Shown here one piece after another: positions 6,856-35,597 of a stretch of DNA of 64,000 nt. Every line of letters starts with the position of its first letter. Position 1 is the stretch's first letter. Below the pieces are notes generated by a model. That model was not told the origin of the DNA. It saw only the letters and a list, made by a program, of their open reading frames with translations, and did not search any database. A program made the position numbers and the translations under genes. The stretch is from a virus, in the IMG/VR virus record IMGVR_UViG_3300030109_003951, positions 1 to 64,000 of that record. One strand, given 5' to 3'.

Positions 6856-6860
6856 TACAA

Positions 6861-7517
6861 ATGGTAACTAGAAGAAGATGTAAAGTCTGTCAACATGAAG
6901 ACAGGACACAAATAGAAGAGATGGTCAATTCAATGACTAAAACTTGTGATGATTTAGATATAGAATTCGATTGGGCAAGTGGTACAACAGCCCGTCACAT
7001 GAGAAACCATACTCAAGGATATGATGATGCCTCTAATCCTCAATGTGCTGTTTGTACTCATCCAGAAAGGGCTAAAATAGAAACAGACATCACAGAAGGT
7101 ACGATTCCTGCTAGTGAAGTAGCAGCACAATTGGGAACAACAGATGCTCAAATTAGAAAACATATGAGGTCACATTTACAACCTCTTGTGCAAAAATCTG
7201 CTGCAACTCAAATTGCTCGTAGAGAAATTGATGAGATAGATATGCTTAGTGCAAACTTACAAAGATTAGATGGTAAATTAGATGAGTTATTTGACATGCC
7301 TACTCACACTACGAGAGAATTAGATTCACTGACTAAACTCGCAAAAGAGATTCGTGAGTCTTTGAAATACCTTATGGAGTTCAAGGGCAAACTTATTCAC
7401 CGAAGGCAGGACACCATCATCGTAGCGCAGATGCAGATTGTCCAAGAAGTGTTGGCGCAAAATCATCCTCAAGTGTGGTTAGACGTTAAAGAAAAGATGA
7501 AGGAGAAGTTACAGTGA
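6861..7517 (+). CDS. Tandem CxxC...HxxxH zinc-finger/HTH protein with coiled coil; candidate terminase small subunit
   Basis: CKVCQH...HMRNH and CAVCTH...HMRSH; lies upstream of TerL; function inferred from position. Confidence 0.5.
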   Translation: MVTRRRCKVCQHEDRTQIEEMVNSMTKTCDDLDIEFDWASGTTARHMRNHTQGYDDASNPQCAVCTHPERAKIETDITEGTIPASEVAAQLGTTDAQIRKHMRSHLQPLVQKSAATQIARREIDEIDMLSANLQRLDGKLDELFDMPTHTTRELDSLTKLAKEIRESLKYLMEFKGKLIHRRQDTIIVAQMQIVQEVLAQNHPQVWLDVKEKMKEKLQ

Positions 7518-7741
7518 GTTGGAGAAGTCTGCTAAAGATTGCTATGGAAGGTTCTAGAAAAACCTTCGATAATTACGAAAGGGCTAAACGCCTTGCTCGT
7601 ACATGGTCTTTTGCAGAACCTCACGTTATCAGAGAAAAAAATGGTAAATTTACAGTCATGATGAAAAAAGACACTAAAGGTTTTCCAGAAGCAGATTTTG
7701 GCCCAGTTGTTCATGAACAAAAAGCGAGGTTTTCAAGATGA
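7514..7741 (+). CDS. Small protein with leader (MSWRSLLK, GTG start)
   Basis: ORF overlaps both neighbours. Confidence 0.65.
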   Translation: MSWRSLLKIAMEGSRKTFDNYERAKRLARTWSFAEPHVIREKNGKFTVMMKKDTKGFPEADFGPVVHEQKARFSR

Positions 7742-15229: not shown

Positions 15230-15621
15230 GTTGGCGAAATATATTAAAACAAGATGATAAAGACGATATTGAAAATAAGTTAATTAGGTTATTAGATAGT
15301 TGGCTTGATAGGAATGCTAATTTTGAAGATTTACAATATATGGCCCAAAGACCAGTTGATATTGATAATAATGAAGATTTAGTTGCTGATGTCGAATTTG
15401 AGAATAATTCTGAGCGAGATTTAGATGATGAACAAGCATTTGAAGAAGGTGAAGGTTTTTTTATTATTCAAATTAGAACAGATGGGAATGAGCAAAGTCG
15501 TCAAGGAAACCCATACAAAATAGCAAGATATAATTTTTTACATGATGAAGGGATAGTAGATATAGAGCCAGTATCAATTGGTTTTATGCCCATTGAATAT
15601 GCAAGGAGGTTAGTGGAATGA
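15226..15621 (+). CDS. Acidic protein with leader (MSWRNILK)
   Basis: ORF overlapping the portal stop. Confidence 0.7.
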   Translation: MSWRNILKQDDKDDIENKLIRLLDSWLDRNANFEDLQYMAQRPVDIDNNEDLVADVEFENNSERDLDDEQAFEEGEGFFIIQIRTDGNEQSRQGNPYKIARYNFLHDEGIVDIEPVSIGFMPIEYARRLVE

Positions 15622-15826: not shown

Positions 15827-16189
15827 GTGAATTGGCAATTAATACTTAAGGCTCCGCTTGAAAAAGCACTTAATCCTAAACTAGCATCTTTACCAGATGA
15901 GCCTAGAAAAAGATTAAAGAAAACACTTCAAGCAGCAGAGCCTTCTGAGTATTTTGGTCAAGATTATACTAGACTTGGGGAACTTATAGATTTAATTCAA
16001 GAAATGGATTTCACTAAAGAAGATAGTGAGTTAGATGAAAAGATAAAGTCAATCAGTGAACAAAACATAGATATGGTGGCTACTGCTGCGAGGTTGCGTA
16101 AGACTTATGAAACATTGTACTTACAGGTTAGAAAAATAGTATATCCAGATGCCAGTGAAGGAAGTTTAAGAGAGGAGGAAGAAGTATGA
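15827..16189 (+). CDS. Helical protein with leader (MNWQLILK, GTG start)
   Basis: ORF 15818..16189; GTG at 15827 places the leader at the N-terminus. Confidence 0.65.
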   Translation: MNWQLILKAPLEKALNPKLASLPDEPRKRLKKTLQAAEPSEYFGQDYTRLGELIDLIQEMDFTKEDSELDEKIKSISEQNIDMVATAARLRKTYETLYLQVRKIVYPDASEGSLREEEEV

Positions 16190-16470
16190 CATGGGAAGAA
16201 ATAGTAAAGGTAAAATTTCAAGGGCCACCACAAGACCCAAGTGGAATAAGACAATCTCCTCATTATAGAATAGGGGCTTTTACACAAACAATGAAAACTG
16301 CACTGGAGAATTTGAAAAATTTAGTAAAAGAACATCCAGATATGAAAAACAATTACCATATTAAAGATACTATAACACAACTTGAACGTGGATTAAAGAT
16401 GCAAGATGAGATTGATAGGTATAAGACGTATAATAGAAAAGATTACCCCGAAGAACATTTTAAGAGATGA
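16186..16470 (+). CDS. Small protein with leader (MTWEEIVK)
   Basis: ORF with GAGGAGG SD. Confidence 0.7.
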   Translation: MTWEEIVKVKFQGPPQDPSGIRQSPHYRIGAFTQTMKTALENLKNLVKEHPDMKNNYHIKDTITQLERGLKMQDEIDRYKTYNRKDYPEEHFKR

Positions 16471-17075: not shown

Positions 17076-19538
17076 GTGCCTCAATTACTTTTCCAAAAAG
17101 AAAGTGACCCTGCTAGACTAGTTCGCACTTTATTTGAAAAGGTCAGAATTGGTTACTTACTAGGAAAAGATGACCCTAAACATTATGCCGAGCGTTGGAC
17201 ATCTGTTATAGATGAACTAAAAGACTTACATGACGATACCAGCAATTTCGCAGCATTAATTAAAAGAACATTGAATGAAAAAGATTTGTTCTCAGACGAG
17301 GTTAAAAATCCAGAGTCACACGAAGCGGGTAGAATTTTTGCAGCAATTAAGAAACTGCGCTATTCTAAAATTACTAAAGACCCATTTATCGAAGAATTCG
17401 GGGAAGAAGTAGTTGATGCTCTTTTATCAGATGAACATGTTTATGTCAAATTTTTGCACTGGGCATTAAGAAACGATGATGATGTTTTAGAGTCAGAACT
17501 ATATGAGAATCAAGATTTAGACCCCGATGAAATCACTGGTGGTTTTGCAGGACTAGATTTAAAAGAAAAAGAAATCATTCCTTTTATCATAGAACATTAT
17601 GGTGACGATAAAGATTTATCAAGATTAGAATCTAAATATAAAGGGGCAATTAGTACTCTAAATAGAATTATAGACAATAAGGAACAAATGAAAAATCTAG
17701 TAGATTTAGATTTACAAAAAGCAGAAAAGTCATTATCTTTTATTGTTCCTAACAAACCAATGTATCGTATTTTTGATATTGAAGATTTAAAAGAATTAAG
17801 AGGTTTCACTGGTAAATGGGTAGTTCAAGAAAAGTATGATGGGATGAGAATACAAATCCACAAGTCAGAAGGTAAGGTCAAAATATATTCTTTTAATAAA
17901 AAAGACATCACAGATAAATGTCCAGAACAAGTTAAAATGATAAGTGAGAAAAAATTTGCAGATTGTATTTTAGATGCAGAATTGATGTTATTTGATGGTG
18001 ACGAACCATTACATCGAGCAGAAGTTGTTGCTAGAATTTTCAAAGATAAAAAATCAGATACAATTTTGAGAGCGCATGTATTTGACATCATGCAATATGA
18101 TGATAGAGATTTAACAGATTCACCATTAGAAGAAAGAATAAAAATATTATTCCAAAACTTTAGTCAACATTCAGATATTGAATTAGCATTCCCATCTAAA
18201 AAAGATACAAGGATTGCAGATTCAATGAAAGACATAGAAGTATATTCTAAAGAGATATTTAAAATTCCAACAGCAGAGGGTGTAGTGTTAAAAGATTTAA
18301 CCTCAACTTATTTCTTAGCCAATAGGAAAAATCCTAAATGGGTTAAATGGAAAAAGTTTGTCGACATTGATGTAGTAGTATTAGATATGAAGAAAACCAA
18401 ATCAGATTTATTTTCATATACTATTGGTGTGGGGCCAGTAGAAGAAGGTGTGGAAGTAAATGGTGTAAAATATCTAAGTGTTGGCAAAGCACTTAACACT
18501 AAAATTAGAGTAGACATTGGGGATATTATTAGAGTCAAGGTTGATGAAGTCAGACAAACACCAGATGGTTTTGCTTTACAATCTGCTAAAGTTATAGAAG
18601 TTCCCGAAGTTGAACAACCAGACAAAGTAGTAACTTTAGAATTTTTAGCAAAAGATACTAAAAAATCTTTGAACTATGATATTGAAGCATTTACTAAAGG
18701 ATATGAAATAACTGACCATGTTCATGGTCATGCTACCATTATTGCTAAATCAGATATGGATGGCTTTACAGTATATGGTTTTCAAGAAGATAACCTCATG
18801 GCTAAAAACGCTTTAGCAAATATGGAAGTTTGGAGAGAACAATTAGGTAAAGCACTTGATGAAGATAGGTCAGTTTTAGAAACAGCAATCATAAATGAAA
18901 TTAAAAGAACTAATAAACCTATGGATATTAATTCAATTGTAAGGTTTTTCAATAGAGATAAAGAACTAAAGAGAATATACGAAAGTGTATTCAACAGTAA
19001 TAAAAATGAATTGTTTAGAAGTCTTAAGAATAAATCAAAAGACCACCTCACATATGAAAAACAAAAATTTAATTTAAACATGGAAGTAGGAGAACCACTA
19101 AGAAAAGAATATTCTACTCCAGAAGAATATCGTAAAGGCACATTCAAAGTTTACATTACTGAAAATGAAAATATTCAAATTGTTATGGATTTAAATGATG
19201 AAAAGATTTCATGGATTATTAAGTTAGATAGTGAAGATGACATATTCAACTTATTCGGCAAATCTAAAAAATTTATGGCGCAAGTTGCAACAACAATGAC
19301 CAAAGGAAAGGTTATTGATTCTGGAGAAGTAGAATTAGGAGTTCAAAGACATGGTTATCATGAATACATGTTAAATGGAAATAAATTTGATACTCGTTTA
19401 CATTTCAGAGTTGTTCCTATTGATGATAAAGAGAACTGGGTAGCATTCACTAGTGTTAAACCAGAGAAGGTTGATTCTAATACTGATGATGGCATATGGG
19501 ATATACGGCAAGATAAGTATAATAAATTAACCCTTTAA
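17076..19538 (+). CDS. Multidomain ATP-dependent ligase in the head module
   Basis: Motif I EKYDG, III ILDAE, IIIa VFDIM, IV EGVVLK, V WVKWK, OB domain; about 220-aa N-terminal and 290-aa C-terminal extensions. Confidence 0.85.
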   Translation: MPQLLFQKESDPARLVRTLFEKVRIGYLLGKDDPKHYAERWTSVIDELKDLHDDTSNFAALIKRTLNEKDLFSDEVKNPESHEAGRIFAAIKKLRYSKITKDPFIEEFGEEVVDALLSDEHVYVKFLHWALRNDDDVLESELYENQDLDPDEITGGFAGLDLKEKEIIPFIIEHYGDDKDLSRLESKYKGAISTLNRIIDNKEQMKNLVDLDLQKAEKSLSFIVPNKPMYRIFDIEDLKELRGFTGKWVVQEKYDGMRIQIHKSEGKVKIYSFNKKDITDKCPEQVKMISEKKFADCILDAELMLFDGDEPLHRAEVVARIFKDKKSDTILRAHVFDIMQYDDRDLTDSPLEERIKILFQNFSQHSDIELAFPSKKDTRIADSMKDIEVYSKEIFKIPTAEGVVLKDLTSTYFLANRKNPKWVKWKKFVDIDVVVLDMKKTKSDLFSYTIGVGPVEEGVEVNGVKYLSVGKALNTKIRVDIGDIIRVKVDEVRQTPDGFALQSAKVIEVPEVEQPDKVVTLEFLAKDTKKSLNYDIEAFTKGYEITDHVHGHATIIAKSDMDGFTVYGFQEDNLMAKNALANMEVWREQLGKALDEDRSVLETAIINEIKRTNKPMDINSIVRFFNRDKELKRIYESVFNSNKNELFRSLKNKSKDHLTYEKQKFNLNMEVGEPLRKEYSTPEEYRKGTFKVYITENENIQIVMDLNDEKISWIIKLDSEDDIFNLFGKSKKFMAQVATTMTKGKVIDSGEVELGVQRHGYHEYMLNGNKFDTRLHFRVVPIDDKENWVAFTSVKPEKVDSNTDDGIWDIRQDKYNKLTL

Positions 19539-19575: not shown

Positions 19576-20823
19576 GTGTTAGGAGGAGTTGTAACAACAA
19601 AATCAAATACGTTTGATATACTGAAGTCACAAGATGATTTAATAATTGCAGGATATGCTTCAATAGAAATGGTAGACAAACAAAATGATTTAATTACACT
19701 CAAAGCGTTGGAGGAAGCAGTACAAAAATTCATGGATAAAAATGAATATAGAAACGTAATGACTAACCATTCAAATGTTCAAGTAGGAGAAGTAGTAAAT
19801 AAATATAGAGATTCAAAAGGACAGATATATAAAACACAAGTAGATGATGTAGGATTTTTTGTAGTAATAAAATTAAGGGATGATATAGAAAAAGCAAAGG
19901 AAGTATCAAGAGACATAAGGCAGGGAACATTAAGGAGTTTTAGTATCGGGGGACAAGCACTAGAAAAAAGAACTGTTAGAGATAAAGAAGTAGGGGAATA
20001 CAACGAAATCAGCAAATTAGAATTACATGAGGTTACAATCTGTGAAAAAGGAATAAATCCAGAAGCAAAATTCGATATACTGAAACAAGATAAAAATAAG
20101 GTGAAAAAAATGAATGAATTAGAAAAAGCACTTGGCGAATTAAATGAACTAGTTAAGAACATGAATTTGTCCAAGGAAGAAGAAGAAGAAAAAGGACATG
20201 GTAGAGACATGGAAATGGGTCACGAAGAAGGCCATGAAGAAGAAAAAATGGGCTATGGTCATGATGAAAAGGCTGATGAAGAAGATGATGTAGAAGACAT
20301 GTCTTACAAGGCTGATGAAGAAGATGACGAAAAGAAAGCAGAAAAAGATGAGGATGATGAAAAGAAAGCATTAGAACTCAACACTTATTCTGAGGCTGGA
20401 GAAGTTGTCTTTGAGAATGGTAGAACAAAAGACCATCCTCAAGAATCAGAATTTAAGATGCAACCTCCTACACTAGATTTGAGTGCTGCTAACTTAGAAA
20501 AAGCATATGAAGCATTTAGAGCAGAAAAATTAGAAGCAATGGCTTATGAGAATCTATCCAAAACATTTGGTGACAGATTTAACTCTGAATTAAAAGCACA
20601 AGATGAAGCAATTGCAAAAGCAAACTACAATGCTAAAGCAGAAGTAGCAGAACTAAGAGAGCAATTTGCATCATTGAAGAAATCATTAACAGAAGAAAAA
20701 CAACAAGTAATTGCAAAACAAGAACAAGTTGTAAGTAATTTAAATATTCCAAGTACTGACGATATTGTAAAAATGAGTTGGGATGAATTACATCAAGTAA
20801 TTGATAATTTGGAGAACAGGTGA
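19576..20823 (+). CDS. HK97-type prohead protease fused to acidic/coiled-coil scaffold
   Basis: IAGYAS..VDKQND, NH, SFSIGG, LHEVTIC...NPEA; immediately upstream of the capsid gene. Confidence 0.9.
   Translation: MLGGVVTTKSNTFDILKSQDDLIIAGYASIEMVDKQNDLITLKALEEAVQKFMDKNEYRNVMTNHSNVQVGEVVNKYRDSKGQIYKTQVDDVGFFVVIKLRDDIEKAKEVSRDIRQGTLRSFSIGGQALEKRTVRDKEVGEYNEISKLELHEVTICEKGINPEAKFDILKQDKNKVKKMNELEKALGELNELVKNMNLSKEEEEEKGHGRDMEMGHEEGHEEEKMGYGHDEKADEEDDVEDMSYKADEEDDEKKAEKDEDDEKKALELNTYSEAGEVVFENGRTKDHPQESEFKMQPPTLDLSAANLEKAYEAFRAEKLEAMAYENLSKTFGDRFNSELKAQDEAIAKANYNAKAEVAELREQFASLKKSLTEEKQQVIAKQEQVVSNLNIPSTDDIVKMSWDELHQVIDNLENR
20110..20823 (+). CDS. Putative nested scaffolding protein from an internal in-frame start
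   Basis: AGGTGA at 20099-20104 then in-frame ATG 20110 (MNELEKA), directly after the protease domain. Confidence 0.6.
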   Translation: MNELEKALGELNELVKNMNLSKEEEEEKGHGRDMEMGHEEGHEEEKMGYGHDEKADEEDDVEDMSYKADEEDDEKKAEKDEDDEKKALELNTYSEAGEVVFENGRTKDHPQESEFKMQPPTLDLSAANLEKAYEAFRAEKLEAMAYENLSKTFGDRFNSELKAQDEAIAKANYNAKAEVAELREQFASLKKSLTEEKQQVIAKQEQVVSNLNIPSTDDIVKMSWDELHQVIDNLENR

Positions 20824-20828
20824 TTAAA

Positions 20829-22262
20829 ATGGTAAGAACAATAAACACAATAAGAGATTTAGAAGCGGCTACATACGGCTTCCAAAACAACTCAATTCTA
20901 AAAGGTACTGGAGTAGTTGGTGCAGCAGGAATTGGTGTAACTGGACACGATGCAGCAATAGGAATAAATGGAACAGCAGCCACAGCAATGACTGATTTAT
21001 ACAATGTAGTATATGGTCAAAAAGTTTGGTCAATGTTGAACCAAGAAATAAATCCACTAGCAATTCTTCCAAAAAGACCGTACACAACAAGCGGTTGGAG
21101 AATTCTAAAAGCAAGACCATTTGGTGGAGCAGATGCGAAATTCGGTTTAGCACATGAATTTTCTGACAACTCTACTGGTGATGCTTTAACAGCAGGTAGA
21201 AGTGGAACACAAGTTGACAGGCCAATGCCAGATGAAATTGGTGGTGTTAGAGAAAATGCAGGAATAGGTGGAGCAGCAGCAGACGGTGATATTACACCAG
21301 TTGCACCAGAATACACAAAACTATTCATGACTCCTAAAACAATTGCTCACATGTTTGAATTCAGTGAATTAGCATCTGAAATGGCAAAGATTGATGATGG
21401 TATCGGTGACTTAAGAGCATTGATTCGTGAAGATATGGGTAAATTCCATGCAGAAGTTCAATCAAAAATGTTAGTAATGCCTCTAGAAGCATATGACTTA
21501 GATGCTGGATTAGCAGCAGGTAGTTCCGCTAGTGGTGCTGCTGCATTTGCAGATATGGAAAGAAACTTAACATCATTAATGAAAATTGTTTCTTCCTCAG
21601 CAGAAGTTCATGAAATGGGTGCGCAAAGTATAGTAGCAGCAAATGATGGTGCTAACAGTGTAGACACAGTTAAACTATATGGTAACACAGATAGAGCAGC
21701 AGACACAGCATTAGGTTCCTCAGTAGGATTTATGGATGCAGAAGTTAACATTGGAGATGGATATGCAGCAGCAGAACAAAGAGTATTAACACTTTCAATC
21801 ATGAATAGTTTAATCCAAAGTTTAAGAACAAATGGAGCAAGTCCAAAAGTTATTATGACTGGATATGATACAATTCAAGCAATTGCTGACTTATTACAAA
21901 GCCAAGAAAGATTCATGGATGCTAAACACATTGTACCAACACATAATGGTGTAAAAGGTGTTGCTGGTGCAGAAGTTGGATTCAGAGTTGCAACATACTA
22001 TGACATCCCACTAATTCCAGCAAAAGACATGCCAAGCACATGCCACTTATCATTATCAACAGGATTAAGTGATATGTTATTCTTAGACACTGACCACTTA
22101 TGGTACTCCGTACTAAAACCAACTCAATACTTTGAAGATGGTATTAATCATGGAAACCCATTCGGCATTGGTAAACTAGGGAATCAAGGAATGTACCGAA
22201 CTATTGGTGAAGTAGGCTGTTCTTTCTTCAAAGGACAAGGTAAAATCACCAACCTAAAGTAA
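20829..22262 (+). CDS. Major capsid protein (HK97 fold inferred)
   Basis: Follows protease-scaffold; about 477 aa; VYGQKVWSMLNQE and YYDIPLIP..D..FLDT segments typical of archaeal tailed-virus capsids; ATG 20829 after AGGTGA. Confidence 0.85.
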   Translation: MVRTINTIRDLEAATYGFQNNSILKGTGVVGAAGIGVTGHDAAIGINGTAATAMTDLYNVVYGQKVWSMLNQEINPLAILPKRPYTTSGWRILKARPFGGADAKFGLAHEFSDNSTGDALTAGRSGTQVDRPMPDEIGGVRENAGIGGAAADGDITPVAPEYTKLFMTPKTIAHMFEFSELASEMAKIDDGIGDLRALIREDMGKFHAEVQSKMLVMPLEAYDLDAGLAAGSSASGAAAFADMERNLTSLMKIVSSSAEVHEMGAQSIVAANDGANSVDTVKLYGNTDRAADTALGSSVGFMDAEVNIGDGYAAAEQRVLTLSIMNSLIQSLRTNGASPKVIMTGYDTIQAIADLLQSQERFMDAKHIVPTHNGVKGVAGAEVGFRVATYYDIPLIPAKDMPSTCHLSLSTGLSDMLFLDTDHLWYSVLKPTQYFEDGINHGNPFGIGKLGNQGMYRTIGEVGCSFFKGQGKITNLK

Positions 22263-22974: not shown

Positions 22975-23268
22975 TTGTCTTGGGAAGATATACTCAAAGT
23001 AAGAGTTCCAGTAGGCAGAGCGCAAGGCTCTGATGAACGACCAGATATTACAATGGATGTATCTGAAAAAGTATTAGCGGGTGCTGATATTTTATATGCT
23101 GTTGAGAAAGCAAACTTGAGAGATAAAACTGGTAAAGGTATAGGAGAAACACTTTTAGAAATGTTAGATTTTACATCTAAAGAAATGACTTTAGCCAATG
23201 CATTATATCGTGATAAATCAGTACCAAGTCTTTATATTGACTATAAATTTCAAGAAATGTATGAATGA
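22975..23268 (+). CDS. Small protein with leader (MSWEDILK, TTG start)
   Basis: ORF and leader. Confidence 0.7.
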   Translation: MSWEDILKVRVPVGRAQGSDERPDITMDVSEKVLAGADILYAVEKANLRDKTGKGIGETLLEMLDFTSKEMTLANALYRDKSVPSLYIDYKFQEMYE

Positions 23269-23604: not shown

Positions 23605-23991
23605 ATGGCAGCAATGGATAAAGACACAAGGCTTGTAATGACGATACTGTTCGTAGGGGCGGTATCTGGAACGAATGTATATTTTTATAGTGCGTATGGT
23701 TCAGAATTACCATTTACAAATTTTGCACACGCAGTACTATTTGGATTTTTAACTGTTGGAGGAATCATGGGACTAAAAGCATGTTTTGATTTAGCAGTTA
23801 ATGATAGAATGGAACTTTGGTTATTAGACCGTAAGATTAAAATTTACTGGGAAAAGAAACAAAGAGAAACTCAACAAAAACAAAAAATTAGAGAGTCGAT
23901 GAATACTTATGGTTCATATATTCCCCCACAAAAACAAACTACCCAAGATAATGAGGTTCCAAACACATTCCTAGCATCAATAGAGCAGTAG
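23605..23991 (+). CDS. Membrane protein (2 predicted TM helices plus basic/Gln cytoplasmic tail)
   Basis: Hydrophobic LVMTILFVGAVSG and FAHAVLFGFLTVGGIMGL. Confidence 0.7.
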   Translation: MAAMDKDTRLVMTILFVGAVSGTNVYFYSAYGSELPFTNFAHAVLFGFLTVGGIMGLKACFDLAVNDRMELWLLDRKIKIYWEKKQRETQQKQKIRESMNTYGSYIPPQKQTTQDNEVPNTFLASIEQ

Positions 23992-24000
23992 GTGTGTTAG

Positions 24001-24207
24001 ATGCCTTTTCTCCCATCAATTACTGGCAACGAACAAGTAGCCTATGATATGAGTAGAGCGCATTCTGCTGATTTATTTTTTATCAAGATGAGAGCATGGT
24101 TTTGGGGAGTAACTGCTAGTGTTGCTTGTTTCTTATTAGGTCATATGATTGGCGTACTTGGTATCAATCTATATGAAATGGTGTGGGGTTGGTTTGGTGG
24201 TCATTAA
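24001..24207 (+). CDS. Small membrane protein
   Basis: AWFWGVTASVACFLLGHMIGVLGI hydrophobic segment. Confidence 0.7.
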   Translation: MPFLPSITGNEQVAYDMSRAHSADLFFIKMRAWFWGVTASVACFLLGHMIGVLGINLYEMVWGWFGGH

Positions 24208-24872
24208 TGTCATTAATGGCTGGATTTGCCGTAGTCGCTGCTGATATTGCTTTAGGGATATATCATAAATTAAACACTATACCTTTTGGTGTATATGGTG
24301 CTACTAGAGTTGGTAAAACAACACTACACAATCAATTAAGAACAAGGGGCGAGGTTGCCGAAATTAAAAAAAGAACAGTGGGTTTACAACGGGCTACTAG
24401 AAAATCAGTTAAGATAGATGGCGATGCTAGAACTTTAAAAACTGCCGATATAGGTGGAGAGTCAAAGTATTGGGATTTATGGAAAAAAGATATGAAAGAT
24501 AGAAAAGTAGATTATATTATTTTTGTAATTGATGATAGGCACTTAGAACAAACTTACAATTTAGAAAATCAATTAGCATGGACTTATCTTGTAGATTTAG
24601 TTTGTGACGATTATTGGCACATAGGTAAAAAAAGAAAAAAGAAAAAAAAGTTTCCTAAAGCAGTTGGCTTGTGGGCAAACAAATATGATAAGTGGGGAAA
24701 GGAACATAATTACGAAGGGCCAATAGAAGAACACCCTATATTTCAGTCATTTAAGTATGGGATGCAGCGATTACATGATAAAGGAATACCCACTCACAAG
24801 TACATCGTGAGTGCAAAATCCGACCCAGAAATGGTATATCGTGGAGTAATGACAATGATAAAAGACTATTGA
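24207..24872 (+). CDS. Ras-superfamily small GTPase, Arf-like
   Basis: G1 GATRVGKT, G2 RTVG, G3 DIGGE..W, IIFVID, G4 ANKYD, G5 SAK; hydrophobic N-terminal helix; ATG 24207 overlaps the upstream TAA. Confidence 0.85.
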   Translation: MSLMAGFAVVAADIALGIYHKLNTIPFGVYGATRVGKTTLHNQLRTRGEVAEIKKRTVGLQRATRKSVKIDGDARTLKTADIGGESKYWDLWKKDMKDRKVDYIIFVIDDRHLEQTYNLENQLAWTYLVDLVCDDYWHIGKKRKKKKKFPKAVGLWANKYDKWGKEHNYEGPIEEHPIFQSFKYGMQRLHDKGIPTHKYIVSAKSDPEMVYRGVMTMIKDY

Positions 24873-24873
24873 G

Positions 24874-25518
24874 ATGATAAAAATGATGCAAGGAAATTAT
24901 AATGGAGGGTTAATTGGTAATACACAACATAACCCATTTGACAAACCTAGTAAAATCGCAAGATTAGCAGGGCCGATGATGGAATATAAATTTGAAAATA
25001 CAGCCCCCAAAAAAAAGTTAAAAGAATTAAGAAAAGTTTTGTTACCAGAAAAAAGAAAATTTTTACTTTTGAAGTTTGGCTACAAGTATAACATCCGTAA
25101 TAGATGTTTAGTGTGTGGCTCATGGCATGAGTGGGAAGCATCTGACCCATTAAGGGCTGGTATCATATTATCAGAAGTAACTAAAGGAAGACCGCTCCAA
25201 GGAACTTATTGTCCTAGACATGCTAACATGTATAAACAATTTGAAATGCTTCAAGATGAAGTTTTGGCTGACAAACATGGCTTAGAATTTAAAAGATATA
25301 TCCCTAAACCGAGAATCCCGTTAATGTCACAAGGGCCAATGACTAACCTAAATCAAGCGCAAGTTTCAAGTCTGATAGCCGCAGGGTGGTTAATACAGCC
25401 GCCCAAAGGCACCAAGGAGATTCCGAAAGAACAATACGTTAGATTGATGTCGGAGATACAAGGCAAACTAAAACAAATAGAAAATTTAGTAGGAGTGATA
25501 GACAATGGTGAGGAGTAG
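24874..25518 (+). CDS. Hypothetical protein with CxxC...CxxH zinc site
   Basis: RCLVCG ... YCPRH. Confidence 0.7.
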   Translation: MIKMMQGNYNGGLIGNTQHNPFDKPSKIARLAGPMMEYKFENTAPKKKLKELRKVLLPEKRKFLLLKFGYKYNIRNRCLVCGSWHEWEASDPLRAGIILSEVTKGRPLQGTYCPRHANMYKQFEMLQDEVLADKHGLEFKRYIPKPRIPLMSQGPMTNLNQAQVSSLIAAGWLIQPPKGTKEIPKEQYVRLMSEIQGKLKQIENLVGVIDNGEE

Positions 25519-26194
25519 TACATTAAATACAGCGTTACAAGGTCAACAAACAAACACATTCAAAACAATGAATAATCTGTTAACATTACAAGATAATCAT
25601 GTTGAAGAATTTTTACAGTATCACGGTCATGAATTTTTCTTAGGTATAGAGAAGTTCTTAGAAGATATTGTAGAGAGAGTCATGAGTCAAATGTTATCTA
25701 AGTTAGAATTCAATGTAGATAATACCAGTGGCTCAATGAAATTAAATGAATATTGTCTAAAGGAATATGAACGAATTACACAAGAAAATATCGAACTAGA
25801 TATTCAAACCATTCTTGCTGCTTCTCTAAACATGGAAGTAGTTAATCAAAGAAGGTTAGCAAAAAACAGTTATTTAGAATCTCAAGGATTTAATCCTCAA
25901 AGCCCTGCTTCTCCAGCAGGACAAGGAATGCCAGCAAATCAAGGAATGATGCAAGGCCAGATACAAGGTCAACCAATGGGCGGTCAAATGAATCAACAAA
26001 TGGCTATGCAACAAAATAATCAATCTGGTTATCCTGTTCCGCCAGCAGGTTACGATAATTACGGCAATCCATACTGGGTAGACCCTAATAATGGACAAGT
26101 CACTTACACTGCCCCATCTAGTGGGTTAGGTATTGGTCGTGCGGCTATGCAAGGAATTGGTAAAGCGGCTGCATGGGCCAAGTGGTTAGCATGA
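25505..26194 (+). CDS. Protein with helical N-domain, Q/M/G-rich linker, WW-like motif and C-terminal amphipathic helix
   Basis: PPAGYDNYGNPYWVDPNNGQVTYTAP; ends GIGKAAAWAKWLA. Confidence 0.7.
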   Translation: MVRSSTLNTALQGQQTNTFKTMNNLLTLQDNHVEEFLQYHGHEFFLGIEKFLEDIVERVMSQMLSKLEFNVDNTSGSMKLNEYCLKEYERITQENIELDIQTILAASLNMEVVNQRRLAKNSYLESQGFNPQSPASPAGQGMPANQGMMQGQIQGQPMGGQMNQQMAMQQNNQSGYPVPPAGYDNYGNPYWVDPNNGQVTYTAPSSGLGIGRAAMQGIGKAAAWAKWLA

Positions 26195-27159
26195 GTATAA
26201 CAATAAACATCCCGTTCCCAGATAAAAAGGGGTTCGTTGAAAGTAAATTAAATGTAGATGATATTACAAATCATTTCTTAGATTGGCTTATTGGGTGTTA
26301 TGATGGTGGAGAAGAAATATGTGGTCTGTTACCATATTATATGTCAAACATTGAAGAAGTTTTTTCAGATAAAGAAAATACTAATTTAGATATGACTCAA
26401 GATTATTTTAAAAAGGCACTTGATGAATTAAGAAATACTAGAATTGATGAAGCAGTTCAAGAAAGAATAAATAATAAAAAATTAAATTTAGACCTTAATT
26501 TAGAAAATCCTAATTTAGAAAATTGGACTTTCCAAGATGTAGATAGTTACAAAGAAGAATTCGTAGGGGCAAAAGATGATGGTGGCCAAATTTTTAATGA
26601 ACATAGATTTGATAAATCTTTATGGTCTAATGTAGAATATACTAACTCTGATTCTAAATATGAAGATGGTATTTTTTCATACACTGCACAAGCAAAAAGT
26701 TCAACTAAAAATTTCTTAACAAAACAAATAGAAAACTCAAAATCTTATTCGAGAGTTAAGTGGGTAAGGACACAAGAAAAACCAGTTATACTAACTATGA
26801 AAAAATTATCTAAAGACTTTCTTAAAGATTTAGGTGAGGCCACACTAGATACTGATACCCTTGATGATGTGTTTAGAGGAATTAGTTGGTTTGAAAAAAT
26901 GGACGATAGTTTTTGGAAATCTAAAGCAGGGTTTAGGTCTAACTCAGATTATTTATTGAACCCTAATATTCTTCTTGAATATGATATAAAGATACCAATT
27001 ACTAAAAACTCAATAGGAAAACCCACAATTGTAGCAAAACCAATACAAGAAGTTTCTTTACAAGGCGAACAACGTAAAGGAGTAAAAGATGATTTGTGGC
27101 GACACCTAAAAGGTAAAATGAAAGTATTAGAAAGATATGTTACGGAGGCAACTACATGA
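26191..27159 (+). CDS. Hypothetical protein
   Basis: ORF 26173..27159; ATGA overlap at 26191. Confidence 0.7.
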   Translation: MSITINIPFPDKKGFVESKLNVDDITNHFLDWLIGCYDGGEEICGLLPYYMSNIEEVFSDKENTNLDMTQDYFKKALDELRNTRIDEAVQERINNKKLNLDLNLENPNLENWTFQDVDSYKEEFVGAKDDGGQIFNEHRFDKSLWSNVEYTNSDSKYEDGIFSYTAQAKSSTKNFLTKQIENSKSYSRVKWVRTQEKPVILTMKKLSKDFLKDLGEATLDTDTLDDVFRGISWFEKMDDSFWKSKAGFRSNSDYLLNPNILLEYDIKIPITKNSIGKPTIVAKPIQEVSLQGEQRKGVKDDLWRHLKGKMKVLERYVTEATT

Positions 27160-29013: not shown

Positions 29014-30771
29014 ATGGTAACGAATAGTGAAGTATGGATGGGGTCTGGTGCATCAGTAACATTAGTCCCAGAGAGTGATTTATTTTTAGGATTTAAAGAT
29101 GGTGCATTTAGCAGTTCAACCACGTCCACAGATAAAACTAGAGGACAATATGAAATTGATTTAGCCAACCTTAAATCTCAATTTAATAACAGTGGAGATG
29201 CATTTACTGATAAATATTTGTTAACAGATAGTGTCTATAGCGGTTGTATTGCTGATTTTATTAAAGATGATGGAACTCTCGTACACAGTAGAGTTATTTC
29301 TGGTAACAGTTATAATAAACTTTATTTCAATGAAGAATACCATAGTGGAACTGGTGATAATACTTATATCATTATAAGAAAGTTTGGTGCGCCAGTTTTC
29401 GGCCCTAAAACAAATGATGCTGGTGGTCAAGCCCAACCTACATTGCTCGCAGATAATTGGTTAGGAATAGTAAACACTATTACTTTCCCTAATCCATCAG
29501 TAGAAGTATTACAAAAGAATCTTGCTCTTGGAGGAAGTAGAAATTTTACTCTTCAATTCAAGGGATTGGAAAATGCCGAAGGTGGAACTTTTGAAGTTAG
29601 TGCTAATCAAGGAACATGGTTGTATTATGCGTTAGGTAAATGTACTAATATAAATGCTACATTTACAGATGTTGATAATTATACTGATATGTTCACTACC
29701 ACAACTACCACTGGATTTTACTTAGATGATGGTTCTACTGGAAATAATTCTGGGATGTTAGAACAAGGCCCATTCTTTTACCGAAGCGTTGTTAATGTTT
29801 CATGTCCACCACCAATACCTTCTGATTTAGGGATAACTGCGGAAGCACATGTAGCAAGTGCAACCGCAACTTTAGAAAAGTTAACACATTCAACTGTTGG
29901 GGCAGATGGTGAAATAGATGATGCAATCACCTATACTTTTGGAGAAGCCAATGGTAGCGATTTACCTTCCTTCACATTAGAACATGTAATCAACAAAGGT
30001 TCACCTACACAATCAATGTTATCAGACGGTACAAATAAAAATTATTCTACTACTGCCAATGATGGAGAATCAAAAACATTAACAGTGAGTGATGAAGTTT
30101 TTACAAGAATAGCAACAGGTAATACAGTCAACACTTTAACTTTAATGGCTAATGAAGGTGAAGAACTTAAAATGAGCATGGATTTAATGACAAAGCAAAT
30201 TATAAAACCACAAGGTAATGATACATCTTCTGTCGCTGCGGCTTATTTGGCAAGAAGAGGAGTAACAGATGATAGAAGTTTAATCAACTTCGGTTCTGGT
30301 GCTGGAGGGGCAAATGCTAGTGTAGAAGAGTTCCTAAAACCATTCTTTTTCCATGATGGTAGTTTAAGTATATTTGGCCAACAATTTTTGAAAATATCAA
30401 ACTTTACATTAACAATAAATAATAACTTACAGGAAAAAAGATTTGTTGGTAATTACAAGAAAGGCTCAAAATCAATTTTACCAGCACAAAGAATGTATGA
30501 GATTACATTAAGTGGTTTAGTTACAGATTCATTATTGTTTGACCAATTATTGAATGATGCAGAAAATCCAAGTACAAGCGCACAAATGATTGAGTTAACA
30601 TTTACTAAAGAAAATGGTGAAAACATTACATTGAAATTTACAGATTATTTTGTTAGTGTGGCTAACTTCCCAATACCAGAAGATAACAGTCCTTTCATTG
30701 TAGATGCTACAATTATGCCAAGAACTTTGAATACATGTACAGTGAAAACACACTGGGTATTACAAGGGTGA
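29014..30771 (+). CDS. Major tail tube protein with insertions
   Basis: WLYYALG, YTF.E...LPSFTLE, FTLTINNNL, R.YEITLSG motifs of siphoviral tail tube proteins. Confidence 0.75.
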   Translation: MVTNSEVWMGSGASVTLVPESDLFLGFKDGAFSSSTTSTDKTRGQYEIDLANLKSQFNNSGDAFTDKYLLTDSVYSGCIADFIKDDGTLVHSRVISGNSYNKLYFNEEYHSGTGDNTYIIIRKFGAPVFGPKTNDAGGQAQPTLLADNWLGIVNTITFPNPSVEVLQKNLALGGSRNFTLQFKGLENAEGGTFEVSANQGTWLYYALGKCTNINATFTDVDNYTDMFTTTTTTGFYLDDGSTGNNSGMLEQGPFFYRSVVNVSCPPPIPSDLGITAEAHVASATATLEKLTHSTVGADGEIDDAITYTFGEANGSDLPSFTLEHVINKGSPTQSMLSDGTNKNYSTTANDGESKTLTVSDEVFTRIATGNTVNTLTLMANEGEELKMSMDLMTKQIIKPQGNDTSSVAAAYLARRGVTDDRSLINFGSGAGGANASVEEFLKPFFFHDGSLSIFGQQFLKISNFTLTINNNLQEKRFVGNYKKGSKSILPAQRMYEITLSGLVTDSLLFDQLLNDAENPSTSAQMIELTFTKENGENITLKFTDYFVSVANFPIPEDNSPFIVDATIMPRTLNTCTVKTHWVLQG

Positions 30772-30776
30772 TTTAG

Positions 30777-30917
30777 ATGGAAAAAACAATTAATTTAAAA
30801 TCTCATCGTAGAGAAGCAATTCCTAAATTAAGAGCATTAGAGGTTAAGAAAAACCCTCCTAAGCCAAAGAAACAACGCAAACCTAGAAAGAAAAAAGTGG
30901 TAGAGGAAGATGAGTGA
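30777..30917 (+). CDS. Small basic peptide (46 aa, not in ORF track)
   Basis: GGGTGA SD, MEKTINLKSH...KKVVEEDE. Confidence 0.5.
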   Translation: MEKTINLKSHRREAIPKLRALEVKKNPPKPKKQRKPRKKKVVEEDE

Positions 30918-31695
30918 ATGGCAATCTGTGTTGAAATCTACTTCTATTGAAAAACAAACTTCTAATGAAGTAATGGATAAATTCGTAGAAAATTTAGGAA
31001 AAGTTATAGCAGATTACCAAAAAGAACAACAAACCAATCAATCCACAACAGCAACACAACCAACTCAACCAACTCAAGCACCCTCGGTTGCGGGTAGAGC
31101 AGATACTATAACTGTTGGAGGAAATAAACCAGCAAGTGGTTATAAAACTTATACTTCTGAAGAAATCCAAGCATTAAGAGGAGCAGGAGTTAGCACTAGC
31201 GAAATAAAACGATTAGATACTGCTAGAGCAAAAAATATGCAAAAACCACCATCATTAGCCGCACCAGCAGCAGGAGTGGCACCAACAAGCGTTGCGGGTA
31301 ATATAGCACCACAAAAACCACTTTCAGCAAGAACAACACCTCCAACATATACTGCTTCGCAAGCAAATATAGATAGAGCGATGCGCAGATTACCACCTTG
31401 GGCAGAGAAACTTAGAGAACGTCAAGCAACTGCTCAAGTGACTCAACAAGAAGGTCAACCTGCTACTTCTCAAGTGAGGCGGGACTCTTATGATAGAGGA
31501 GAAGACGACTCTAGAACAAGAGGACTTGGGCCAGCAAAGCCAGTTGGTGGTCAAGGTAGAGTTAAACGTACTCCAACACAAAAAGATAAAACTATGGCTC
31601 AACAAGGATTATCTCTAGCCCAGCAACGTGAGTTAGAAGTTGATACACTTCTAGGAGAAACACTACAGGATAGGAGAGAAAGACAACGAAAATAA
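30910..31695 (+). CDS. Q/T/P/A-rich disordered protein with leader (MSEWQSVLK)
   Basis: ORF inserted between the tail tube and chaperone genes. Confidence 0.7.
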   Translation: MSEWQSVLKSTSIEKQTSNEVMDKFVENLGKVIADYQKEQQTNQSTTATQPTQPTQAPSVAGRADTITVGGNKPASGYKTYTSEEIQALRGAGVSTSEIKRLDTARAKNMQKPPSLAAPAAGVAPTSVAGNIAPQKPLSARTTPPTYTASQANIDRAMRRLPPWAEKLRERQATAQVTQQEGQPATSQVRRDSYDRGEDDSRTRGLGPAKPVGGQGRVKRTPTQKDKTMAQQGLSLAQQRELEVDTLLGETLQDRRERQRK

Positions 31696-32107: not shown

Positions 32108-32295
32108 AGGGTAAGCAGGTAGATATAAAATCCATGTCTAGGATTATGGTCTACATGTTGTCCCAAGCACTATCTATAAGTCCATTAGAAGTTTACAATT
32201 TACCAAGTGATTTATTCAAAGATATGTTAATAATATATGGAGAAGTGGAAAAGATTAAAAGTGAAGAAATGGAGAAGGCGTTGAGGAAGAAATGA
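32080..32295 (+). CDS. -1 frameshift extension of the tail chaperone (gpGT-like)
   Basis: A AAA AAA at 32080-32086; -1 frame open to TGA 32293-32295 (RTFRDGLKG...LSISPLEVYNLP...ALRKK), overlapping the tape measure ATG. Confidence 0.8.
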   Translation, partial: KKRTFRDGLKGKQVDIKSMSRIMVYMLSQALSISPLEVYNLPSDLFKDMLIIYGEVEKIKSEEMEKALRKK

Positions 32296-33593
32296 GTTTT
32301 GTAGATTTTGAAAATACGGTTAAATCGCTTCGTGCTGAACTTCGAGGAGGTTCAGAAGACGCAGGAGGTTTTTTAAATAAACTTTCTGATAATAGGGCGA
32401 TTGCTGGTTTATCTCGTTTCGATAATAGTGTTGGTCAATTACTTTTTAAATTTAGAGGTCTTGTTGACACTTTTGCATCAGTCAAAGGTAGAATTGGAAG
32501 TGTAATCAATGCCTTCAATGTTTTTTCGAGTGCTAGTGCAAAAGAAAATAAAATAATCCAAGATAAACTTGGTGGTTATAAAAAATTAATACGTGATTTT
32601 AAAAATATAAAAAAAGCACATAAGGAAGGCACTGTTGGTGCGATGGAATATGCTGATGCTATTCAAGGGTTAAAAGATGCTGGAGTTTTAGATAGTAAAG
32701 GAAAACCTACGGGTGGTTTCTTTGGTAATTTAAAAGCATTCATTAAAACTGGATTAAAATTATTCAAGAACTTTTTGATATTTGGAAGTTTACTTGTTAT
32801 TGGGTTTGCTTTATTATTCCCAATACTAAAAGAAAATTTACCAAAAATAAAAGGTTTATTTGCAATAGTAAAAGAAAAATTCAATCAAGTTGTTGATACT
32901 CTCAGACCAGTGTTTGAGGCAATCAAAGTATTTTTCAAAGTGTTACTTGACCCTAACGCTACTTGGATAGAAAAGGTAGGTGCTTATGTTATTGTACTTG
33001 GTAAACTAGCAGAAGCGTTGATTAAATTAGCACTTGCTGCTTTAGCAGGTTTAGCCAAACTATTATTAGCAAGTGTAACAAAACTCTTAGTTCCAATGAT
33101 TGTTGAATTCTTTACAAATATACCTACCTTTTTAGGAAAATTTTATGAAGATTTTTTGAAACCAAAATTAGGCGAACTTCTAGAGGCTTTGAAGGGATTC
33201 GTAGATAAAAACAAAGGAAAAATTAAACAAGTAGGAGGAGGCGCACTTATTGGTGGAGCAGTAGGAGGTATAGTTGGCTCAATCGTCCCAATAATTGGAA
33301 CTGGTGCTGGTGCAGTAATAGGTGGTACTATTGGTGGAGCGATTGCTGCCAGAGCAGATGGTGGCCCAGTTATGGCTGGTAGACCTTACATGGTCGGAGA
33401 ACGAGGCCCAGAATTATTTATGCCAAACTCTAGTGGGATGATAATACCCAATGGTGCAGGAAATACAATCAATGTTCACGTTAATGGTAGAGTTGGTGCA
33501 AGTGACCACGAACTAAGAGACATTGCTAGAAGAGTAGGACAAATGGTTAGTAAAGAAATTAATAGAACTACTAGTTTTGGGGTGAGATTATGA
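32292..33593 (+). CDS. Tape measure protein (short)
   Basis: Amphipathic/hydrophobic helices, Gly-rich segment, RADGGPV..GRPYMVGERGPELFMP motif. Confidence 0.85.
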   Translation: MSFVDFENTVKSLRAELRGGSEDAGGFLNKLSDNRAIAGLSRFDNSVGQLLFKFRGLVDTFASVKGRIGSVINAFNVFSSASAKENKIIQDKLGGYKKLIRDFKNIKKAHKEGTVGAMEYADAIQGLKDAGVLDSKGKPTGGFFGNLKAFIKTGLKLFKNFLIFGSLLVIGFALLFPILKENLPKIKGLFAIVKEKFNQVVDTLRPVFEAIKVFFKVLLDPNATWIEKVGAYVIVLGKLAEALIKLALAALAGLAKLLLASVTKLLVPMIVEFFTNIPTFLGKFYEDFLKPKLGELLEALKGFVDKNKGKIKQVGGGALIGGAVGGIVGSIVPIIGTGAGAVIGGTIGGAIAARADGGPVMAGRPYMVGERGPELFMPNSSGMIIPNGAGNTINVHVNGRVGASDHELRDIARRVGQMVSKEINRTTSFGVRL

Positions 33594-34405: not shown

Positions 34406-35597
34406 TATTATTCCAATAAACATGTACGTTTCAAATAGGAAAGCATTAGTATTTCCTGTGATGTGCAACGGACATATAAAAATTCCAGAAGTTTCTGGAG
34501 AAGGGTTTGGATTATTTGGACATGAAGGTAGTTTTACAATTGAAACTATTATTACCCCATATGATGTAAATGGTTGGGGGTTTGATTTTGAATTACAATC
34601 TAGTGGTATTGCATCTCCTGTGGGCGATGCTGGTGTTTTGTCTAGTAGAAGAACGATGCCTTCTAATTGTGATGGTACACATACCAATTTTGAAGATTTT
34701 TTATACTCTCCTTCTCATGGTGGGACTGGTAACATACAAGTTGGTGGAGTAGATTTACGCTATCTTCAAGAGATGACATTATTTTATAATGGGAATGTTA
34801 GTTTGAGTTTAGTTAACAACACAAACCATAACACAAATCAGCCCGCAGAATATCAAGTTAAATTCCAAGTACACAATAATGGCACAACCAAATCTATAAC
34901 TTCAGACTCAGTGATAACTGCTGACCACACCCATACTGGAACTAAGACCACAAGAGCATATGCAACAACTGATTATAATGAAAATGTGTATGAAGGGGAT
35001 AATAAAATAAGATATAGAAAAGCAGGAACTACAGTAAACGGGGCTACATCAAGTGCTGCTAATTTTACTGCTACTACACAATATAGAGTTTACAAAGGTC
35101 AAAGATTATACACTTTGAGTGGGACTACGTTCACTTCTATTGGAACTGTAACTGGGATAAGTGGCACAACAATTACTATGAGTCAATCTAACTCTTTATC
35201 AGATACAGCAGTTCTTTATACTGATGCTTACAAAGAAGCATTTTACATGTTTAACTCATTTCATATAGCAGCAGTTTACAATGATATGACTAAAGTTATG
35301 ACATTATATGTCAATGGCAAAAAAGTAAAAAGAGACGTTATTAATGTTAGTGGTGTTTTTTCATTTCAACAGGCAGATAGTTATATTGGACAAGTTCCTG
35401 CGACTGGATTAGGTAATCTTAACAACACTATTGGCCCAACTGGTTATCAATTTGGGACACCCACACAATTTATGGGAGAATTACATGAGTTTGCTATATT
35501 GAATGATTCTAAAGAACATTTTGATGTTGTTGATACTTTGGCTCCTAGTATTAGAAGTGTATTATTATATTATAGATTTGAGGAGGCGAACTTGTAA
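34377..35597 (+). CDS. Tail protein with split LamG/concanavalin-like domain
   Basis: FTIETII...FHIAAVYN...LYVNGK...YIG...FMGELHEFAI...YYRF. Confidence 0.7.
   Translation: MKWLLFLWGDIIPINMYVSNRKALVFPVMCNGHIKIPEVSGEGFGLFGHEGSFTIETIITPYDVNGWGFDFELQSSGIASPVGDAGVLSSRRTMPSNCDGTHTNFEDFLYSPSHGGTGNIQVGGVDLRYLQEMTLFYNGNVSLSLVNNTNHNTNQPAEYQVKFQVHNNGTTKSITSDSVITADHTHTGTKTTRAYATTDYNENVYEGDNKIRYRKAGTTVNGATSSAANFTATTQYRVYKGQRLYTLSGTTFTSIGTVTGISGTTITMSQSNSLSDTAVLYTDAYKEAFYMFNSFHIAAVYNDMTKVMTLYVNGKKVKRDVINVSGVFSFQQADSYIGQVPATGLGNLNNTIGPTGYQFGTPTQFMGELHEFAILNDSKEHFDVVDTLAPSIRSVLLYYRFEEANL

Follow-up and report, generated by a model that had tools for sequence, protein, structure and literature searches.

Why would a tailed virus of archaea keep a small GTPase with Arf-type signatures, together with small membrane proteins, close to its capsid genes? 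The question is raised by positions 23605-26194 of IMG/VR record IMGVR_UViG_3300030109_003951, an 86.6 kb virus that is 92% complete (CheckV). We analyzed the first 64 kb of this record (64,000 nucleotides; the window), which has a G+C content of about 34% and comes from a tailed magrovirus. The presumed hosts are Marine Group II (Poseidoniales) archaea. The original prediction, made from the letters of the window, was that an Arf-like GTPase lies here in a module of five genes for egress or membrane remodeling. We found that the GTPase is a small G domain that carries Arf-type signatures and is maintained by selection. Its constant companions are a protein with one or two transmembrane (TM) segments, a small protein (hydrophobic in the window's lineage), a Cys/His protein that we call Z, and a Q-rich protein. 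Tentatively, we propose that this cassette helps the virus to leave its host.

The five closely packed genes that had been described at this locus are all present as open reading frames (ORFs) on the + strand, with gaps of 1-11 nt or overlaps between them:

23605-23991, + strand: protein A, 128 amino acids (aa), with two TM segments (from hydropathy and an alignment of 12 homologues)
24001-24207, + strand: protein B, 68 aa, with one TM segment (from hydropathy and an alignment)
24207-24872, + strand: small GTPase, 221 aa (from a fold model, profiles, and motifs)
24874-25518, + strand: protein Z, a Cys/His protein of 214 aa (from an alignment and its invariant columns)
25505-26194, + strand: protein Q, a Q-rich protein of 229 aa with a Trp-rich tail (from alignments and their invariant columns)

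As called mechanically, the ORF of the GTPase begins with a GTG at 24183 and ends at 24872. The ATG at 24207 is the start of all of its homologues, and it overlaps the stop codon of B. The likely start of Z is Met4 (the fourth codon, at 24883). In comparisons to relatives that are 88-96% identical, the ratio of nonsynonymous to synonymous substitution rates (dN/dS) was 0.08-0.14 for B, 0.05 for the GTPase, and 0.05-0.06 for Q, so these are constrained protein-coding genes. Nowhere else in the 86.6 kb genome do several genes for membrane proteins cluster together.

We compared the 80 closest IMG/VR loci, which were found through the GTPase (60-100% identity), by using tblastn with the window's proteins. 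As far as each contig reaches, the gene order was kept in all 80 loci. A, B, and the GTPase were found in 80/80 of these loci, Z in 76/80, and Q in 63/80 (the remaining copies of Q are cut by contig ends). The genes for the major capsid protein (MCP) and a 91-aa protein precede the cassette; after it there is a variable slot, followed by the genes for a 372-aa protein and a 187-aa protein of the connector region. The cassette of this lineage reads as an insertion into the array of connector genes. We also selected 16 near-complete relatives by using TerL, independently of the GTPase, and each of the 16 genomes has one intact copy of the GTPase. The idea of a conserved module with membrane proteins was thus borne out, as its genes do occur together.

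The variable slot is worth describing on its own. In the window, the slot is filled by a 328-aa gene (26173-27159) that lies directly after Q. This gene has a homologue in just 3 of the 80 loci, although the flanking genes are conserved, so the slot is hypervariable. At the same site, other relatives have unrelated sequence of 1-2.5 kb.

A second lineage is represented by 280 IMG/VR loci, on contigs of 100-118 kb. Homologues of the GTPase and Z are adjacent in 80 of 80 loci from this lineage. Their flanks cannot be aligned to those of the window, but they have the same build: upstream of the GTPase are a Q-rich protein of about 190 aa with one TM segment and a small protein of about 80 aa, and downstream are a Q-rich protein of about 210 aa and a protein of about 85 aa with one or two TM segments. 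In the second lineage, the cassette is not beside MCP but is found on the strand of TerL, 8-9 kb upstream of that gene. The first conserved gene downstream of the cassette is a homologue of another gene of the window, which encodes a 232-aa Cys-rich protein (6819-7517). That protein is about 35% identical to L087:9856-10548 and has weak matches to HTH_20 and to PHROGs for HNH endonucleases or DNA-binding proteins.

In a third lineage (P0129-like), the same five-part layout is found directly downstream of a chaperonin gene (L164:4250-5785 and L167:3820-5481). The Q-rich protein of L167 is homologous to Q (E = 9.5e-10). Because its genomic position differs between lineages, we view the cassette as one portable unit rather than something bound to one place in the head-tail gene order. 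It had been described as lying inside the virion operon; this is correct for the window's lineage, but not for the second lineage (8-9 kb from TerL) or the third (after the chaperonin). In the two lineages that we checked, the cassette has the same orientation as TerL and MCP.

Are there cellular relatives of the GTPase? Among the genomes of 185,579 species, the only matches were on two contigs of a single metagenome-assembled genome (MAG), at 61-63% identity to the viral GTPase. These contigs (L082 and L083, or NZMJ01000101.1 and NZMJ01000024.1) are labelled "MAG: Maricaulis sp. isolate IN14", which would be alphaproteobacterial. We rejected them as cellular homologues, as they are most likely viral contigs that were mis-binned. 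A scan of 1.8 billion representatives gave only 63 matches to the GTPase at E ≤ 0.001, and tblastn of the GTPase against 50,697 records from phages and archaeal viruses gave no match. In BFVD, the 50 best matches were all from giant viruses of eukaryotes, and none were from viruses of prokaryotes. Thus, the family is specific to marine archaeal viruses and is not a family of cells. For P0134, we did not find an IMG/VR locus. In the papers on magroviruses and archaeal viruses that we could search, we found no mention of a GTPase in these viruses and no description of the five-gene block. Some automatic annotations from the Joint Genome Institute (JGI) label homologues of the GTPase as "GTPase SAR1 family protein".

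According to its AlphaFold2 model, the GTPase is a Ras-superfamily G domain that keeps the G1-G5 motifs. (The model was built from a 58-sequence alignment and has a predicted local distance difference test score, or pLDDT, of 89.7 and a predicted template modeling score of 0.85.) G1 is GATRVGKTT, G2 is KRT57VG, G3 is D81IGGE85, G4 is NKYD, and G5 is SAK, and there is an invariant Trp (W92) at D+11, counting from the Asp of G3. In the model, an N-terminal helix runs directly into strand 1, and the G domain has six strands and an extra beta-hairpin. Foldseek matched the model to hundreds of small GTPases (Rab, Arl, and Ras), with E values of about 1e-9 to 1e-10; the best target-normalised TM-score was 0.77, to Arl6 and Arl1. 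All of the motifs that had been quoted for this protein (KRTVGL, DIGGESKYWDLW, IIFVID, ANKYD, SAK, and GKKRKKKKKFPK) are in the sequence, as is the hydrophobic helix at the N terminus.

The signature is well conserved. GKTT is found in 182/182 sequences from the close lineage and 69/71 from the second lineage, and the Trp at D+11 in 181/182 and 66/71, respectively. DxGG is essentially invariant across both lineages. The next residue, which is at the position of the catalytic Gln, is E, Q, or D: of the 182 close sequences, 126 have E and 55 have Q, and among the 71 sequences from the second lineage there are 52 with Q, 10 with E, and 4 with D. The Glu that was originally noted at this position is correct for the window's GTPase, and across the family the residue varies.

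The N-terminal hydrophobic helix spans residues 2-22, has a conserved E/D13, and is followed by Y[KR][KR].H. Its median Kyte-Doolittle hydropathy over 19 residues is 1.7 (range 1.7-1.9 in the window's lineage), and its hydrophobic moment in the window's lineage is low (about 0.25-0.3). Because of the high hydrophobicity, the low moment, and the conserved acidic residue in the middle of the helix, we consider it to be anchor-like in this lineage. It is more amphipathic in some members of the second lineage. The hydrophobic N-terminal helix that had been described is there, but in the window's lineage it resembles an anchor more than a classic amphipathic helix of the Arf kind. The second unusual element is a polybasic beta-hairpin (KKRKKKKK; hairpin at residues 136-145), an insertion that follows helix 3 and precedes strand 5. 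Both of the lineages that we examined have this basic patch, with 5-10 Lys or Arg per 14 residues.

Does the GTPase belong to the Arf family? The best match in PDB for the family's profile was 8OUN (E = 7e-11), and the alignment begins in the N-terminal helix. 8OUN is full-length GerdArfR1-GDP, which is an Arf-related GTPase from Asgard archaea (bioRxiv 10.1101/2024.02.28.582541). When we built a profile from the second lineage alone (about 31% identical), 8OUN was the sole PDB match at E ≤ 0.001. In the printed profile alignments, GerdArfR1 has DLGGQLHFRNLW, with the same spacing from Asp to Trp as the viral GTPase. For the remote relatives P0179, P0181, P0152, P0177, and P0178, Arf was the best Pfam family. 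The most Arf-like of these, P0179, scored 57 bits against Arf over its full length and 35 bits against Ras; it is a singleton, and we did not find any named kin for it. The signature motifs and the profile matches agree with the original prediction that the protein is Arf-like rather than a generic P-loop GTPase.

Several results weigh against this. For the window's GTPase by itself, the Pfam matches were MMR_HSR1 (E = 9e-7), Arf (3e-5), and Ras (1e-4). Of 14 control genomes, 13 (E. coli among them) also have matches to Pfam's Arf model, so a score above its threshold says little. In the PDB search with the family's profile, 8OUN led Ras by just about 4 bits. According to the profile alignment, the interswitch exceeds that of GerdArfR1 by about 5-7 residues. 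The N-terminal helix of the window's lineage is atypical for an amphipathic helix, and the defining feature of the Arf family is an N-terminal amphipathic helix that is released when GTP binds (bioRxiv 10.1101/2024.02.28.582541). Membership in the Arf family rests on motifs and on modest profile scores; on these grounds, the GTPase probably belongs to the Arf/ArfR lineage.

We turn to the partners. Protein A has hydrophobic segments at about 10-28 and 43-61, which are followed by a strongly charged helix that is rich in K, R, E, and Q. Across the 12 aligned homologues, it has a conserved acidic motif near the C terminus (EV..FLA.LE/Q). We did not find a family match for A in Pfam, PHROGs, or NCBIfam. 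By the criteria for holins in a recent review (PMC10791045), A appears holin-like in its general build: it is small, with two putative TM helices and a charged C-terminal tail. Protein B has a conserved N-terminal motif (AYD.SRAHSAD.FF.K.RAW.WG) and then one TM helix (at about 34-56).

Protein Z is the sole partner whose homology to the window can be detected by sequence in all three lineages. It is found downstream of the GTPase, either directly or after one to three inserted genes. Its motif is RC..[CD]G ... GR...GTYCP.H, and the invariant residues are C78, G82, W87, G105, R106, T111, Y112, C113, P114, and H116. Z had been described as having a zinc site. C78, C113, and H116 are indeed invariant, but C81, which is the second Cys of CxxC, is Asp in many members of the second lineage, so a classical zinc site with four ligands is not universal in this family. 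None of the 685 relatives of Z has an assigned name, and the contigs that carry them are of magrovirus size. The AlphaFold2 model of Z is poor (pLDDT 60.1), and Foldseek gave no PDB match for it at E ≤ 0.001; a sequence profile search of PDB gave chance-level matches only, and no match in the ESM Atlas was above 0.85. Overall, we did not detect a relative of Z with a known function by sequence, by fold, or by language-model features.

Protein Q has a conserved helical domain near its N terminus (about 20-135), which is followed by a variable linker that is rich in Q, G, M, and P. It also has a conserved mini-domain (SGYPVPPAGYD.YG.PYW[IV]DP..GQ.[ST]Y.[AP]P) and a nearly invariant Trp-rich tail (AAWAKWL[AM]); the window's Q ends with AAWAKWLA. 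Sub-threshold matches to WW domains in 4 of 12 members (best E = 0.015) make a WW-like domain a faint lead. Matches to Mo25 were also sub-threshold, with E values of about 0.1.

How does the cassette compare to known systems? The closest known relatives of the GTPase are the Arf family and the ArfR proteins of Asgard archaea (GerdArfR1, 8OUN/8OUM; HodArfR1, 8OUK/8OUL; bioRxiv 10.1101/2024.02.28.582541), along with Arl8, Arl6, Arl1, and Arl3. The viral GTPase shares with them the fold of the G domain, GKTT, DxGG[Q/E], the Trp at D+11, and a likely association with the membrane, and like GerdArfR1 it has a helix directly before strand 1, which aligns with the helix of GerdArfR1. Unlike them, it has the longer interswitch (by 5-7 residues), the polybasic hairpin between helix 3 and strand 5, an N-terminal helix that is anchor-like instead of amphipathic in the window's lineage, and Glu at the catalytic position in about 70% of close relatives. 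It is at most about 20% identical to the solved structures, and it is encoded only by viruses of Poseidoniales and not by cells.

The nearest functional precedent within the Archaea is the operon of the archaeal vesiculating GTPase (ArvA, ArvB, and ArvC) from Haloferax volcanii (PMC10927574). In that operon, ArvB (DUF2073) is directly downstream of the GTPase, and ArvC, which is a Zn-ribbon protein (DUF2072), is within two genes (PMC10927574). In both systems, the operon pairs a Zn-type protein with a small GTPase that has an N-terminal helix, and ArvABC acts on a euryarchaeal cytoplasmic membrane. The cassette differs in being viral rather than cellular and in that its partners include integral membrane proteins. 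Despite the Cys/His motif of Z, neither DUF2073 nor DUF2072 matched A, B, Z, or Q (Pfam, E up to 0.1).

Another parallel is SRbeta (the beta subunit of the receptor for the signal recognition particle), a G domain that an N-terminal hydrophobic anchor keeps at the membrane and that recruits a soluble partner when it is in the GTP state. The viral protein would likewise be an Arf-related G domain, with an anchor-like N-terminal helix. Pfam's SRPRB model was below threshold for the window's GTPase (17.1 bits, versus a cut-off of 25); at E ≤ 0.01, this model matched 20 of the 58 members of the family. The neighbors of the viral GTPase do not include an SRalpha-, FtsY-, or SRX-like partner, and its context is viral. 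SRbeta nests within the Arf family (bioRxiv 10.1101/2024.02.28.582541). Giant viruses encode small GTPases of the same fold (Rab, Ras, and Ran; for example, mimivirus Rab, PDB 5XC5), but those are close copies of the eukaryotic genes of their hosts, while the magrovirus family has no close cellular counterpart and is from a tailed virus of prokaryotes.

Finally, the cassette resembles the lysis cassettes of phages: it is a compact set of small membrane proteins on the late strand, its position is portable, and A has the generic build of a holin. Unlike a lysis cassette, it has no muralytic enzyme and no family match. A muralytic enzyme would not be expected because the presumed archaeal host has no murein wall. 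It had been noted that no endolysin was recognised in the window, and this held for the roughly 25 larger proteins that we scanned against Pfam or PHROGs. We know of no lysis cassette that contains a GTPase.

What might the cassette do? From its genes, we infer that the five products probably form a membrane-bound GTP switch complex. The cassette would build this complex, as one portable set of genes, on the cytoplasmic face of the host's membrane. The helix at the N terminus and the basic hairpin would hold the G domain at the membrane, beside the integral proteins A and B. In its GTP state, the G domain would recruit Z and Q. As Z has an invariant Arg beside the Cys/His motif, it is a candidate for an effector or a GTPase-activating protein, and Q may be targeted to the membrane by its Trp-rich, putatively amphipathic tail. 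If A is holin-like in its action, it would form the membrane lesion, and the GTPase would be its switch or clock.

Of the roles we considered for such a complex, the most likely is to time or execute the breach of the host's cytoplasmic membrane so that virions are released; we put this forward as a candidate function that still falls short of an even chance. We favor egress because the cassette is the genome's sole multi-gene cluster of membrane proteins, because A has the build of a holin, because the cassette's positions are like those of lysis cassettes, and because tailed archaeal viruses lack a known machinery for egress. In P2-like and lambda-like phages, the genes for lysis sit upstream of the terminase or separate the head genes from the tail genes. 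The shared orientation of the cassette and the late genes is another pointer to egress. Head-tailed viruses of archaea do, in many cases, lyse their hosts, and the players in their egress are described as completely uncharacterised (PMC10791045).

There are also reasons to doubt a role in egress. The haloarchaeal siphovirus HCTV-1, which is the closest isolate by MCP, has eight small non-membrane genes between MCP and the tail tube, with no GTPase or cassette there; since such viruses often lyse their hosts, their egress probably does not, as a rule, require a GTPase. Two small ORFs on the minus strand (47618-47773 and 52469-52618), each with a single TM segment, could be the real holins. And in Pfam, PHROGs, and NCBIfam, none of the cassette's proteins matched a family of holins, lysins, or spanins, although holins are so diverse that the lack of a match to a holin family cannot exclude a holin.

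If the cassette does not release virions, it might instead be a membrane-tethered platform for morphogenesis, which would anchor or chaperone the assembly of the procapsid or tail, with the GTPase as an assembly checkpoint. There is precedent in phage T4, whose prohead assembly is initiated at the membrane by gp20 with the membrane chaperone gp40. Several aspects of the cassette would fit: it lies between head genes and connector/tail genes in the window's lineage, it is co-oriented with TerL and MCP in two lineages, it follows a chaperonin gene directly in the third lineage, and it is a single-copy core gene set, as structural genes are. But where it lies with respect to the head and tail genes varies, which would be unusual for dedicated assembly factors, HCTV-1 does without it between MCP and the tail tube, and no member of the cassette matches a head, tail, or scaffold family. 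We consider this explanation to be unlikely, at about one chance in a handful.

We give similarly low odds to the idea that the cassette takes over the host's membrane for something other than release, for example to exclude superinfection, to block or hijack the host's vesicle formation or cell division, or to make a membrane-bound compartment for replication or assembly. GTPases of the Arf and ArvA types deform or mark the membranes of cells (PMC10927574; bioRxiv 10.1101/2024.02.28.582541), and the portability of the cassette, its restriction to viruses, and the accessory leader genes that are tolerated within it in some relatives (described below) would all suit such a role. Genes for exclusion or takeover are usually variable accessory genes, however, while the cassette is a universal and single-copy part of the core and is under strong purifying selection. 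Also, the cassette lacks matches to ArvB (DUF2073) or ArvC (DUF2072), and there is no cellular homologue that it would closely mimic.

It seems much less probable that A, B, and their partners are packaged in the virion as pilot or ejection proteins and form a channel for DNA delivery in the membrane of the next host. The podoviruses P22 and T7 do encode ejection proteins beside their head and tail genes, and the window's lineage does encode TM proteins between its head and tail genes. However, a cytoplasmic-type GTP switch would have no obvious supply of nucleotide within the virion or outside of the cell, the usual channel former would be the siphovirus-type tape measure, which has its own hydrophobic segments, and in the other lineages the cassette is far from the head and tail genes. 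The five proteins also lack the MSW.DILK leader that is shared by about 17 accessory genes, which is a weak argument because the meaning of the leader is itself unproven.

It is least probable that the likeness to Arf is superficial (a divergent generic TRAFAC GTPase that is Era-, Der-, or Roc-like) or that the block has no coherent joint function: MMR_HSR1 does outrank Arf in Pfam for the window's protein, Pfam's Arf model is unspecific, and Foldseek does not separate Rab, Ras, and Arl, but the signature of DxGG, Trp at D+11, and GKTT is invariant in two lineages, the sole PDB match of the second lineage's profile is an Arf-related protein, the remote relatives match Arf best and over their full length, and the strict synteny of the partners and their relocation along with the GTPase argue for a joint function.

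The rest of the window supports its assignment to a tailed virus. The morphogenetic operon of a tailed virus lies on the + strand:

10868-12304, + strand: TerL
13628-15229, + strand: portal
17076-19538, + strand: ATP-dependent DNA ligase, embedded among the head genes
19576-20823, + strand: prohead protease
20820-22262, + strand: MCP
29014-30771, + strand: tail tube
32292-33593, + strand: tape measure of the siphovirus type, with its own hydrophobic segments

A ligase within the structural module is a described trait of magroviruses of groups A and B (Philosof et al., PMC5434244). Among isolates, the closest relatives of the MCP are from siphoviruses of haloarchaea (HCTV-1, HCTV-5, and HVTV-1), with identities of about 24-28%. 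In a comparison to a relative that is 97% identical (L003), the dN/dS of the MCP was 0.30, versus 0.05-0.14 for the genes of the cassette; the value for the MCP may be noise because few substitutions were involved. Downstream of the tape measure is a single ORF for a protein of 2629 aa (35597-43486), which is presumably a giant tail or host-recognition protein. The same virus encodes a GroEL/thermosome-like chaperonin just beyond the window (64573-66099 of the record, minus strand).

About 17 ORFs on the + strand share a leader peptide, M[ST]W.D[IV][LI]K, which is absent from all five proteins of the cassette. These ORFs are at 21-317, 327-647, 649-942, 948-1613, 1861-2331, 3594-3980, 3982-4365, 4362-4715, 4712-5101, 5106-5609, 5614-6855 (a tRNA nucleotidyltransferase), 7514-7741, 15226-15621, 15827-16189, 16186-16470, 22975-23268, and 30910-31695. 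In six relatives (L031, L033, L036, L039, L051, and L067), genes with this leader are inserted into the cassette, either upstream of the GTPase (after B) or downstream of it (before Z).

Few archaeal viruses of the surface ocean are as abundant as magroviruses, which carry a cassette that is universal, single-copy, strongly constrained, directed at the membrane, and built around a GTP switch. How tailed archaeal viruses exit their hosts is an acknowledged open question (PMC10791045), and the cassette offers a concrete target of five small genes. That viruses of Thermoplasmatota-lineage archaea encode an Arf-type GTPase beside membrane partners also bears on the origin and spread of eukaryote-like trafficking GTPases. 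The boldest version of our proposal has two parts: that a major group of tailed archaeal viruses leaves its hosts by means of the cassette, as a GTPase-gated machine without a counterpart in phage lysis that breaches the membrane, and that the GTPase is a genuine member of Arf/ArfR outside of the Asgard archaea, Korarchaeia, and eukaryotes. It is doubtful that both parts are right, but if they are, then Arf-type membrane switches would be circulating in the archaeal virosphere.

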